Below are positions 3,551-52,221 of a stretch of 64,000 nt of DNA, one piece after another. The DNA is from Candidatus Aenigmatarchaeota archaeon (GTDB lineage: Archaea; Aenigmatarchaeota; Aenigmatarchaeia; PWEA01; JACQIF01). The DNA is taken from assembly GCA_016432325.1 (NCBI GenBank), contig CP066684.1, positions 810,770-874,769 of the forward strand. Reading direction: 5' to 3'. The position numbers and the translations under genes were made by a program. The first letter of the stretch is position 1. Each line of letters starts with the position of its first letter. Below the pieces are notes generated by a model, which worked only from the letters and a program-made list of their open reading frames with translations, ran no database searches and was not told the origin of the DNA.

Positions 3551-4918
3551 ATGGACATGGAGAAAAGGATGGAACTGATAAAACAAGTAGGAGAGGAGAT
3601 ATTAACCGAAGAAGAACTACGAGAACTTCTTGCCAAGAAACGCGATCCCATCGCCTACGACGGCTTTGAGCCTTCCGGACGCATGCACATTGCGCAGGGA
3701 ATTTTGCGTGCGATTAATATTAACAAGATGACCCGTGCCGGCTGCAAATTCAAGATGCTTGTTGCGGATTGGCACGCCTGGGCTAACAACAAGATGGGGG
3801 GCGACCTCGATGCGATTCAGATGGTAGGCGAATACATGATAGAGGTCTGGCGAGCCAGCGGTATGGAACTGGACAACGTGGAGTTTGTCTGGGCCTCGGA
3901 CCTAGCAAAGGACGACGAGTACTGGAAAATCGTTATGAACGTTGCCCGCGCGTCGACGCTCAATCGTATTATACGCACCGCACAAATAATGGGACGATCG
4001 GAACGTGACACTCTCTCGGCCGCGCAGATACTCTATCCATGCATGCAGGCCGCGGACATCTTCTACCTGAAAGCCGACATAACACAACTCGGCATGGACC
4101 AGAGGAAGGTGAACGTTCTGGCTCGCGAGCTGGGGCCGTCGCTTGGGTTTTGGAAACCTGTTGTTGTTTCGCACCATATGCTGATGGGACTTGTGGAACC
4201 CACTACAAAACCACATATAGCTACAAGGCATCTGGATCTTCAGGGAACGTTGCCTTTGCCCAACGGAGGACAATTAAGAATAAAATCAGTTCCATCACAA
4301 AAAGGACTTTTACCAGTTTTAAACCATCCTGCCTATGGCGGCCGAGGATTTAGTGCAAAATTCTTTTACACTCCACCAAAATCAGTGACAGCGACAGAGG
4401 AAGAATTGTGGCAACGGGAATTAACAAACCTTGATGGGATCGGGGTCAAACTTATATCTCTCGATCAAATGACAGGTGAAGCTCAGTTGGAAATAATTTC
4501 AGGACCTTCAGCAGAAGAGCGGGCGATGGCGATGAAGATGTCCAAATCGGTCCCAGACAGCGCGATATTCATGACAGACTCCGTAGACGATATTAGCGAG
4601 AAGATATCGAAAGCGTACTGTCCAGAAAAGCAGACAAACGAGAATCCGATTTTGGAATATTGCAGGCATATTATTTTCGGGTTGAACGAAGAGATGAAAA
4701 TAAGCAGATCGGCCAAATGGGGTGGTAATGTAACGTATAGTTCATACGGTGAGCTTGAAAGGGACTATGCCGGCGGGAAGTTGCACCCAATGGATTTGAA
4801 AGCCGCCGTGATAAAATATTTGGTGAAAGCAGTCGAGCCGATACAAAAGCACTTCTCCAAGAACAAGAAAGCCGCCGAACTTCTGAAGTTCGTGGAAGGC
4901 GCGAAGGTGACCAGATGA
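3551..4918 (+). CDS. tyrS: Tyrosyl-tRNA synthetase (archaeal type) with ~100-aa insertion
   Basis: YDGFEPSGRMHIAQG (HIGH), ADWHAW, YPCMQAAD, GMDQRK, KMSKS, LHPMDLK. Confidence 0.95.
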   Translation: MDMEKRMELIKQVGEEILTEEELRELLAKKRDPIAYDGFEPSGRMHIAQGILRAININKMTRAGCKFKMLVADWHAWANNKMGGDLDAIQMVGEYMIEVWRASGMELDNVEFVWASDLAKDDEYWKIVMNVARASTLNRIIRTAQIMGRSERDTLSAAQILYPCMQAADIFYLKADITQLGMDQRKVNVLARELGPSLGFWKPVVVSHHMLMGLVEPTTKPHIATRHLDLQGTLPLPNGGQLRIKSVPSQKGLLPVLNHPAYGGRGFSAKFFYTPPKSVTATEEELWQRELTNLDGIGVKLISLDQMTGEAQLEIISGPSAEERAMAMKMSKSVPDSAIFMTDSVDDISEKISKAYCPEKQTNENPILEYCRHIIFGLNEEMKISRSAKWGGNVTYSSYGELERDYAGGKLHPMDLKAAVIKYLVKAVEPIQKHFSKNKKAAELLKFVEGAKVTR

Positions 4919-4968
4919 AAACGCGCGGCGTTTTCAAAGTTACCTCCAACGGGGTCGGTAACCGATGA
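4914..4968. repeat. Hairpin module A between tyrS and serS, flanked by GATGA direct repeats
   Basis: TGAAAACGC-gcg-GCGTTTTCA AA GTTAC..GTAAC; same architecture as tRNA-Phe intron 1. Confidence 0.75.
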
Positions 4969-6233
4969 TCGACATAGAACTCCTGAGAAAAGATGCGGAC
5001 GCAGTGCGCGCGAATCTCGCGCGCCGCCACAAGCCCGAGCTGCTCGAACTGCTGGACTCGGTCATCGAGATGGACGAAAAATGGAGAAAGGCGCAAGGCG
5101 AACTGGACGCTCTGCGCGCCAAGCGCAACGAGCTCACCGAACAGATACGCAAGAAGAAAGACGCGAAGCTGATAGCGCAAGCGCGCGACGCCAGCGCGCA
5201 TGTGAAGGCCCTCGAAGACGAAGTGGCGTTCCTCAAGCCGAAGCTTGATTTCGAGCTCTCAAAGATTCCTGTGATGCTGCACAAAGACGTGCCGGACGGA
5301 AAAGACGCGAACGACAATCCCGTCGTCCGTACGTGGGGCAAGCAGACAAAACCGAAATTCGCGCTCGCGTCTCATGGGGAACTTATCGAGGCTCTGGGAA
5401 TCGGGGACTTCGACAGGGCGTCGGAGATCGCCGGACGCGGATTCAACTACATCATGGGCGACCTGGCTCTTCTTGACAGGGCGCTGCAGGCGTATGGAAT
5501 TGAATTTCTGATAAAGAACGGCTTCAGGTTCGTCGAGCCGCCGCTGATGATAAGGAAGCGCCCGATGGAAGGCACAACGGACTTCCAGGCGTTCATAGAC
5601 GTCCTCTACAAGATAGAAGGGGAAGACCTGTACCTCATTCCTTCGTCCGAGAACTCGCTCGTCCCGTTCTATATGGACCAAGTCATCGATGAAGACGAAC
5701 TGCCGCTAAAGATAGTCGGCGTCAGCCCGTGCTTCCGCAAGGAGATCGGTTCGCACAGCGTCGACACCAAGGGTCTCTACCGCATGCACCAGTTCAACAA
5801 GGTCGAGGAAGTCGTAATCTGCAAACCCGAAGACTCGTGGAAGTGGTTCGAGAAATTGCAGGCGATAAGCGAGGATATTTTGCAGTCGCTCAAGATACCT
5901 TACCGCGTCGTCGACATCTGCACAGGCGATATCGGCTCGAAACAGTCGCGCCAGTACGACATAGAAGCGTGGTTCCCGCGGCAGGGCAAGTACGGCGAGA
6001 TCACATCCTGTTCGAACTGCGTCGACTATCAGGCGCGCGGCCTGAACATGAAGTACGGCAAGCGCGGCGGCTCGCGCGCGTTCGTGCACACTCTGAACAA
6101 CACGTGCGTCGCCACTTCGCGCATAATGGTCGCGATTCTCGAGAACTTCCAGAACGAGGACGGCACAGTCGACGTTCCGAAGGTGCTGTGGCCGTACATG
6201 ATGGGACGGAAGACGATTGGGAAGGCGAAGTGA
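4965..6233 (+). CDS. serS: Seryl-tRNA synthetase
   Basis: N-terminal coiled coil, PCFRKEIG, RMHQFNKVE, EITSCSNC, HTLNNT. Confidence 0.95.
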   Translation: MIDIELLRKDADAVRANLARRHKPELLELLDSVIEMDEKWRKAQGELDALRAKRNELTEQIRKKKDAKLIAQARDASAHVKALEDEVAFLKPKLDFELSKIPVMLHKDVPDGKDANDNPVVRTWGKQTKPKFALASHGELIEALGIGDFDRASEIAGRGFNYIMGDLALLDRALQAYGIEFLIKNGFRFVEPPLMIRKRPMEGTTDFQAFIDVLYKIEGEDLYLIPSSENSLVPFYMDQVIDEDELPLKIVGVSPCFRKEIGSHSVDTKGLYRMHQFNKVEEVVICKPEDSWKWFEKLQAISEDILQSLKIPYRVVDICTGDIGSKQSRQYDIEAWFPRQGKYGEITSCSNCVDYQARGLNMKYGKRGGSRAFVHTLNNTCVATSRIMVAILENFQNEDGTVDVPKVLWPYMMGRKTIGKAK

Positions 6234-6238
6234 CGCGT

Positions 6239-6757
6239 ATGGAAGACCTTCACGCACGATGGCCGCATCGGTGGCTGACGCCGAAGGCTGTCGTGAAATC
6301 CTCTAGAATACACGGTTTGGGAATTTTCTGCGGGGGGGACATCGCCAAAGGAGAGACCGTTCTTGTTGCCGGCGGTGTAATAGTCCCGTGCTCTGAAATA
6401 TCCGAGTATCGCAAGATAATGGGCATCGATGTGGGCGCCCAGATAGACGACGACTTCTTTATATGCCCAACGAACAGGGAAGAACTTGAAGATAGGGGAG
6501 TTGTCAATCACTCGTGCAATCCAAATATCGGCATGGTAAATTCAATATCGCTGGGAGCCTTACGAAAAATAAGAGCCGATGAAGAACTCGTAATGGACTA
6601 CGCCTTCCACGAAACGTCGTTTGAGCCCTTCAAATGCAACTGCGGCTCCGCGAACTGCCGCGGCACGATAAGACCGACGGACTGGCGGCTGCCCGAACTG
6701 CAGAAGAAGTACGGCAAGTACTTCTCGCCGTACCTGCAAAGGAAGTTCATGAAATAG
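6239..6757 (+). CDS. SET-domain protein-lysine methyltransferase with post-SET zinc site
   Basis: IHGLGIF, NHSCNPN, EELVMDY, CNCGSANC; ATG 5 nt after the serS stop. Confidence 0.9.
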   Translation: MEDLHARWPHRWLTPKAVVKSSRIHGLGIFCGGDIAKGETVLVAGGVIVPCSEISEYRKIMGIDVGAQIDDDFFICPTNREELEDRGVVNHSCNPNIGMVNSISLGALRKIRADEELVMDYAFHETSFEPFKCNCGSANCRGTIRPTDWRLPELQKKYGKYFSPYLQRKFMK

Positions 6758-51755: not shown

Positions 51756-51772
51756 AGCATCATTCCATAGAG

Positions 51773-51856
51773 GTCGTTTTTGCCCATGTACGAAAACACG
51801 CGTTTTCGACATGTCGGCAAGCTTCGCTTGCCGTACACGCTTTTCTTAAAAGCGTG
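51773..51856. repeat. Module B (51787-51838) nested inside module D
   Basis: GTCGTTTTTGCCCA[B]CGCTTTTCTTAAAAGCGTG compared with the reverse complement of 18919-18950. Confidence 0.8.
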
Positions 51857-51914
51857 ATTTTCACAGATATCGTAGGAAGGCAAACTTTATAAACGCCCTG
51901 CGCCAACGGTATGC

Positions 51915-52103
51915 ATGCCATTGAAGTCCGGCTGGCAAGTGGACGAAGAGGTGCCCATGGCGATAATCCTCTTTGTTCTTGTCGCGGCTGTCATGTACTA
52001 CTGGGTACCCAGCGCGAGCACGGCGCAGAAGCTGGCCACGGCGCTGCTCGTTTCCGTAGCAGCGGTCTCTCTCGAAGTCATTCTGACAGGCAAGCACAAG
52101 TGA
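51915..52103 (+). CDS. Small 2-TM protein
   Basis: TTTATAAA box upstream; two hydrophobic helices. Confidence 0.6.
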   Translation: MPLKSGWQVDEEVPMAIILFVLVAAVMYYWVPSASTAQKLATALLVSVAAVSLEVILTGKHK

Positions 52104-52221
52104 GCGTGGCGTTCACCACAGCCAGTTCATGAAACTGCGGTTTCATACCGCCAGTCCCCTGCCACTTCACCACCGCCAGTGGTAAGGAACTATTATTTAC
52201 CAGCCGGACGCCTAAACATAC

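Follow-up and report, generated by a model that had tools for sequence, protein, structure and literature searches.

How introns arrive in archaeal tRNA genes is an open question, and a stretch of 64,000 nucleotides from an Aenigmatarchaeota (DPANN) archaeon bears on it, as putative donor sequences are here visible outside tRNA genes. This stretch (contig CP066684.1, positions 810,770 to 874,769; hereafter the window) comes from a genome of 875 kb in a single contig, labelled G000. A first-pass annotation had proposed that one set of four mobile mini-hairpin modules, A to D, builds both the tRNA introns and the intergenic inserts of the window. As detailed below, the same elements almost certainly occur in introns and in spacers. 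Feature coordinates are window positions, numbers preceded by G000 and a colon are genome positions, and the other G and L numbers label compared genomes and contigs. Orthologous sites were compared in three same-genus or close relatives; the genomes and contigs used include the sister species G001 and the relatives L052, L053 and L054.

Elements shared by tRNA introns and spacers

When the non-coding DNA of G000 was compared with the whole genome, 198 loci were joined in one network, built by single linkage and including some weak links: 137 in spacers, 44 in parts of tRNA genes and 17 in coding sequences. DNA outside tRNA genes is matched by 27 of the 89 introns at E<=0.01 (1 when introns are shuffled) and by 12 at E<=1e-4 (0 when shuffled); for 40 introns there is a match to an intron in another tRNA gene, which lies at a different loop in 28 cases. 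These matches, like the motif counts of A and B given below, far exceed those of shuffles and uphold the view that the modules stand above chance. Elements measure 45-60 bases and are found in spacers, in tRNA introns and in frame in proteins. No strand bias is seen in the hairpin loop motifs.

Read directly, the places listed by the first-pass annotation for modules A to D all exist, apart from several corrections. The copy of A at 43168 has the second hairpin and a ribosome-binding site but not the GAAAC hairpin; the "partial B" of the Ala intron is a different cassette, F; and the one in the Phe anticodon intron is at most one B-like half. Modules C and D do recur as described, but as subfamilies of one cassette, so that the four modules resolve into three architectures: B, A, and a tailed-hairpin cassette uniting C and D. 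Overlooked were a spacer C at about 61850-61911, a B nested within D at 51773 and doublets of a further module, G, at 15736 and 19311.

A stem-based search identified 44 tRNA genes in G000, 42 of which are interrupted, with about 90 introns (26 in the D-loop, 33 in the anticodon loop and 34 in the T-loop, by an automatic parse with a few mis-parses). By comparison, ARAGORN finds no tRNA in the window by default and 12 genome-wide when introns are allowed, and Rfam finds 2 in the window; standard annotation overlooks most tRNAs of these genomes. The tRNA genes concerned are as follows.

13213..13318, minus strand: initiator tRNA-Met gene, without a module, interrupted by one short intron
18659..18844, minus strand: tRNA-Pro(UGG), with introns in the anticodon loop and the T-loop, the latter (18676-18738) being cassette C
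18960..19151, plus strand: tRNA-Ala(CGC), with cassette D in the D-loop intron and cassette F in the T-loop intron (19071-19134)
19184..19389, plus strand: tRNA-Ile(GAU), with one canonical intron, then a G doublet, an A-type hairpin and a repeated tRNA 3' end
19793..20018, plus strand: tRNA-Met(CAU); cassette E and module B (19846-19890) make up the D-loop intron, and the T-loop intron (19951-20001) is an inverted module A
40827..41066, plus strand: tRNA-Asn(GUU); the T-loop intron (40912-41049) is made of cassette C, in which module B is nested at 40971-41022
41072..41282, plus strand: tRNA-Phe(GAA), with three introns; the D-loop intron (41095-41142) is module A and the T-loop intron is a C-rich form of the tailed cassette

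The T-loop intron of tRNA-Ala shares 94% identity with the T-loop intron of tRNA-Asn in L052. Several tRNA genes are preceded by a duplicate of their own first 9-12 bases (window 18903-18914; G000:25082, 629800, 700416, 753597 and 784559), and for tRNA-Arg(ACG) the same 5' duplicate with cassette D is also found in G001, minus the nested B. A separate observation is that tRNA-Thr(UGU), at window 20890-20965, has no intron and an unusual T-loop, GCAGAGC, and that its G001 counterpart has two introns.

Presence and absence at orthologous sites

The elements are very probably mobile, since orthologous sites are empty or otherwise filled in relatives; the empty-site orthologs that the first-pass annotation had wanted sought do exist. 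The Asn/Phe locus is different in all four genomes compared. Its Asn T-loop intron consists of C and B in G000, F in L052 and E in L053, and is absent in G001; between the two genes G000 has no insert, L052 and L053 have D, and G001 has G; upstream of Asn, an A element is confined to L052 and L053. The Asn-Phe pair is not carried by endA loci recovered from metagenomes, which are too distant. A comparison of about eleven tRNA genes orthologous between G000 and G001 shows presence differences in about a third of the loops (counted by eye), in both directions.

Insertions of B are precise. In G000, one copy sits at the tip of the hairpin in the D-loop intron of tRNA-Gln, and the otherwise matching G001 intron has none. 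In G001, a nested B is found in one of two tRNA-Thr copies (L045, L047) that have the same flanks and differ by another insert as well; these copies probably stem from two strains in one bin. B also lies in frame in the family-B polymerase of G000, whose G045 homologue has an exact 18-residue gap, and in three genes of G045, two of which face a 17-residue gap, one of them against a 77%-identical paralogue.

Matching DNA for G000 is present in groundwater sequencing runs. Contigs from four runs of a single study, which may have been the source of the assembly, contain the region 12300-32299 of the window in long segments with no differences, so that misassembly is unlikely; they show no empty-site variant.

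Architecture of the elements

Module B consists of two back-to-back hairpins with a one-base bulge each, the second being an inverted copy of the first (RNAalifold). It is a REPIN-like doublet and not a terminal-repeat miniature inverted-repeat transposable element (MITE), because the hairpin pairing holds in all copies and terminal pairing does not: the bulge-adjacent pairs are kept in 20/20 and 20/20 copies, with 9 and 8 compensatory changes at variable columns, whereas pairing of the terminal repeats fails in 6/20 and 5/20 copies at two columns, the internal pairing holding. This computed co-variation confirms the conserved stems with compensatory change noted at first; the label "MITE-like" had to be dropped for B, which fails in terminal pairing and shows no target duplication (0-2 bases in 24 of 25 copies, near background) and no flanking homology. 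By structural pattern, G000 has 25 clean copies, 17 in spacers, 7 in introns and 1 in a coding sequence, against 0 in six shuffles, and a covariance model finds about 35 loci. About 30 positions are conserved. Well-formed halves of B come as doublets, and none of the halves enclose a gene. The preference for hairpin tips is not significant (11/25 against a background of 31-41%), and the commonest junction, G^C, accounts for only 9/25. Nesting is recurrent: the doublet G lies at the centre of B in five copies, and a third doublet is nested within G. Copies in window spacers are:

12495..12545, strand unassigned: module B, an inverted pair of bulged hairpins
51773..51856, minus strand: cassette D with nested module B (51787-51837)
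15736..15782, strand unassigned: module G hairpin doublet, seen by genome-wide comparison

The distribution of B in the phylum is patchy. It is abundant in two genera of different orders and sparse in a few more families, was not found in 138 of the 150 genomes searched, and has near-identical cores in two orders.

Module A is a double hairpin, GAAAC..GTTTC followed by TTAC..GTAA. Its strict form occurs 30 times in spacers, twice in tRNA genes and once in a coding sequence, against 0.1, 0 and 1.0 in dinucleotide shuffles; a scan that included 60 relatives counted 0-9 strict copies in these and 36 in G000. A gene start, a TATA tract or a tRNA end is frequently repeated, in degenerate form, on the flanks of spacer copies, and the score of the flanking target repeat reaches at least 10 in 22% of A elements versus 2% of controls. 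Window copies in spacers, with the features read from sequence, are:

4916..4968, plus strand: module A between the tyrosyl-tRNA synthetase (TyrRS) stop and the seryl-tRNA synthetase (SerRS) start, flanked by a degenerate repeat of ribosome-binding site and start
27195..27249, plus strand: module A variant with a repeated TATA-like tract
32744..32797, minus strand: inverted module A with its own ribosome-binding site, just 5' of an SMC-like gene start
42153..42206, plus strand: module A variant with a repeated TATA-like tract
43163..43203, plus strand: partial module A, with second hairpin, ribosome-binding site and start only
52130..52190, plus strand: module A hairpin with a copy of a 15-base target on either side

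Before SerRS in G001, stop and start overlap directly and the A site is empty (the upstream gene being deduced from a short contig end). Start-type A elements (window 32744-32797, minus strand; G000:178690 and 802652) can be read as an open reading frame of about 18 codons with MHETAVSY at its beginning; its stop directly adjoins the next start codon.

The tailed-hairpin cassette (C, D, E, F) comprises a T-tract hairpin, an 8-10-base palindromic turn, a mirror A-tract and usually a small GC hairpin. Among the informative copies of G000 and G045, 44/56 have A-runs of equal length on either side of the turn (permutation mean 19, maximum 31). An internal G likewise has its mirror counterpart, a tail G being present in 42/56 arms that have an internal G versus 6/45 that do not. 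These counts are inflated by related copies. The order of pyrimidine tract, purine tract and covarying mirror tract corresponds to the layout of class II intrastrand triplexes (PMC4666352). Cassettes in tRNA genes lie in sense orientation in 26 of 27 cases, and F begins at the first intron base in T-loop and anticodon-loop introns alike. Several spacer cassettes stand directly after a stop codon or CCA, in sense orientation; in G045, many cassettes themselves start with TAA, TGA or TAG. Spacer cassettes of the window are:

18903..18949, plus strand: copy of the first 12 bases of tRNA-Ala, then cassette D (18918-18949)
38957..38989, minus strand: cassette D directly 3' of the endA stop codon
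61850..61911, minus strand: cassette C directly after a stop codon, seen by genome-wide comparison

Cassette D is not present 3' of endA in L052, L053 and L054, where the downstream neighbours differ. In G024 (L173, L176, L191), single tRNA introns contain three to four units of a C-rich tailed cassette in tandem.

Predicted splicing and possible intron birth

The window encodes a tRNA splicing endonuclease.

38988..39548, minus strand: endA, a single subunit of 186 residues with a Nanoarchaeum-type extra loop

The closest named relatives of this EndA are those of Aenigmatarchaeota, and no second EndA subunit was found in the genome, which also encodes RtcB. Homotetrameric EndA is usually described as strict. 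The single subunit with its Nanoarchaeum-type loop suggests an enzyme of broad specificity. In this genome the single-subunit EndA coexists with about 90 mostly non-canonical introns. With intron boundaries set by loop length and not by motif, the four-pair helix of the bulge-helix-bulge forms at least 3 pairs in 26/33 introns at 37/38 (shuffles 22%) and in 27/34 at 59/60 (shuffles 18%); intron ends thereby show an excess of bulge-helix-bulge helices at canonical registers.

Three introns consist nearly wholly of module A, those of the Met T-loop, the Phe D-loop and the Gly(CCC) T-loop (G000:758809). The Phe D-loop and the Gly(CCC) T-loop are intron-less in G001 and carry an A element in G000, a pattern that birth by insertion predicts and that supports it without proving it, loss in G001 being the alternative; closer relatives have unrelated introns in the Phe D-loop. 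Most module insertions merely enlarge introns already there. To say that one set builds the introns was too strong: the modules are indeed shared, but no spacer match is detectable for most introns, and both B and several of the cassettes lie inside pre-existing introns. On balance, the evidence leans slightly towards some introns having been born by insertion.

Possible mechanisms

The elements are repeated, structurally constrained, mutually nested and present or absent at orthologous sites. They probably represent several families of miniature non-coding, non-autonomous hairpin DNA elements that move in trans, some of which form introns. Copying would take place on DNA, most likely in the form of folded single strands, and would be carried out by a trans-acting enzyme; selection would retain the harmless copies: in spacers, beside a restored gene start, in frame in protein loops and in existing introns. 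Copies in tRNA loops would be kept if their junctions form a bulge-helix-bulge removable by a broad-specificity EndA, yielding a new intron, and cassettes, once in a tRNA loop, could spread among tRNA genes. For B, the paired bulged hairpins and clean insertion, together with the chemistry of IS200/REP (repetitive extragenic palindromic) elements, suggest HUH-type cut-and-join, and it is conceivable, if doubtful, that an HUH-type enzyme moves it. A tentative proposal is that of a tiny mobile DNA class of Aenigmatarchaeota, not described so far, that would depend on an enzyme from outside the transposase families now known and would directly create EndA-spliced introns when it inserts into tRNA loops.

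The mobiliser suggested at first, a RAYT/TnpA(Y1) or another, did not emerge from six protein families, a local profile, genome subtraction or viral contigs. No Y1/RAYT was found in G000, G001 or G137, the local profile being likewise negative in G000, and the Y1 of G045 belongs to an ordinary IS200 with unrelated ends. Short non-autonomous copies of this IS200 (L132:11560-12320, L142) exist, and a 10-base insert at the tip of the hairpin distinguishes two left ends. DDE_Tnp_1, the sole DDE family searched, has no member in G000 and one in G001. Among the proteins shared by G000 and G045 minus those of G024 (about 85% covered), there is no transposase-like candidate except two tRNA-adjacent tyrosine integrases, and three module patterns had no match in viral contigs. 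Two tyrosine integrase genes (L055, L056) lie just 3' of tRNA-Gly(GCC) and tRNA-Arg(ACG) with a common 24-35-base upstream motif; no second attachment site was seen.

Several results weigh against mobile hairpin DNA elements as the source of introns. A spacer match is undetectable for most introns, and exon copies inside A-type introns are not significant (3' exon test, p 0.35 and 0.43). Y1_Tnp, RVT_1, Transposase_20, the TnpB zinc finger, DDE_Tnp_1 and Y2_Tnp have no match in G000, which is 90% complete; genes of the Y1/RAYT, reverse transcriptase, IS110, TnpB, IS4-type DDE and Y2 kinds were thus not found there. In the phylum as a whole, the presence of Y1 genes does not follow that of B. 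The nearly uniform sense orientation of cassettes in tRNA genes (26/27) is also predicted by an intron-first RNA route, in which the tailed cassettes would be intron parts spreading between tRNA genes, as in Thermoproteales, and the spacer copies would be excised introns that RtcB had joined to cleaved RNA ends and that were then turned into DNA again. This route would likewise account for the start of F at the first intron base in two kinds of loop, for the sense spacer copies after stop codons or CCA, and for the 40/89 introns matching that of another tRNA gene, 28 at another loop. It is unlikely, given that G000 has no reverse transcriptase, that B is symmetric and found in a protein gene with no splice motif, and that A resides mostly in spacers (30 to 2). 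Many G045 cassettes bring their own TAA, TGA or TAG, and the sense bias could also come from selection, as an antisense copy would expose a free U-tract, likely a terminator.

It has also to be considered that no dedicated enzyme is involved, and that hairpin-prone DNA undergoes polymerase template switching and snap-back synthesis, producing local hairpins and target duplications, with gene conversion among tRNA genes spreading the modules. The target repeats flanking A (score at least 10 in 22% versus 2% of controls), stems that are perfected with variable loops and the failure to find a mobiliser all speak for such a process, which is nevertheless quite unlikely: B has about 30 conserved positions with no flanking homology or duplication, its near-identical cores occur in two orders, and a mirror A-tract cannot come from snap-back synthesis. 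Finally, three-strand mirror covariation kept across distant genomes (44/56 versus a permutation mean of 19) would suit host signals, that is, RNA-processing or protein-binding structures placed by selection and not selfish. This last reading is highly improbable, as congeneric orthologous sites are empty or occupied by another family and copies also lie in frame in enzymes. Mobile hairpin elements as possible intron donors are open to experiment, with before-and-after sites available in congeneric genomes and short defined substrates testable with EndA and candidate nucleases.

Other features of the genomes

A 16S rRNA gene (L033:1501-3678) is 2178 bases long, about 700 over the model, and one 45-base insert in it is like a spacer hairpin family. 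The 15-base palindrome TATAACAGTGTTATA has 13 promoter-proximal copies (G000:9608, 279052, 282502 and ten others) and is probably a transcription-factor site not related to the modules. The 136-base stretch at window 318-453 occurs again at G000:618972-619107 with 89% identity.

Comparison with known systems

A literature search found no published description of such elements in DPANN tRNA introns. The mechanism of tRNA intron transposition in Thermoproteales is described as not known (PMC4090602), and a 2026 census of Asgard tRNA introns reported no general route via copying, mobile elements or reverse transcription (10.64898/2026.10.13.758758). As in G000, Thermoproteales (Fujishima 2010, as summarised in PMC4090602) and ARMAN-2 (PMC3239211) have similar introns across isotypes and positions, and relaxed bulge-helix-bulge motifs at 59/60 and in the D-loop. 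Interrupted tRNA genes amount to 42/44 in G000 versus 56% in ARMAN-2 (PMC3239211). The G000 introns are modular and nested, and their modules also occur outside tRNA genes, whereas the summaries consulted name no such donor family.

Module B is reminiscent of the REPINs of the REPIN/RAYT system (PMC3116915), with a unit made of an inverted pair of imperfect palindromes, compensatory changes and extragenic dispersal. It differs in that no RAYT/Y1 is found in G000 or co-occurs with B, that its halves have no spacer between them, and that it resides in archaeal tRNA introns and in frame in proteins. From MITEs mobilised by DDE transposases, the elements are set apart by having no fixed-length target-site duplication, the repeats of A being variable, degenerate and confined to a minority. 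Rickettsia palindromic elements and Methanocaldococcus coding repeats (PMC2229807) similarly include palindromic inserts that lie in spacers, in frame in proteins and in RNA genes; the modules described here are shorter (45-60 versus 105-146 bases), have no terminal inverted repeat and are predicted to be spliced out of tRNA.

Mitochondria offer a further parallel. The double hairpins of Allomyces (cited in PMC7218506) and the GC clusters of yeast (PMC4478555) are tiny, optional hairpins that merge and shuffle, occur in spacers and introns and have no proven mobiliser. The present elements belong to an archaeal chromosome and can form a whole intron, and B, unlike GC clusters, shows no target duplication. 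The C/D/E/F cassette appears to share with the BoxC/TM triplex repeats (PMC4666352) the class II succession of pyrimidine tract, purine tract and mirror third tract, and differs in being A/T-rich, in its 8-10-base palindrome at the turn and in its concentration in tRNA introns. Compared with these systems, the modules constitute a new form of miniature palindromic mobile DNA, whose role in tRNA intron birth is plausible and unproven; if insertion into tRNA loops does create introns, they would be the first identified donor for the birth of archaeal tRNA introns.

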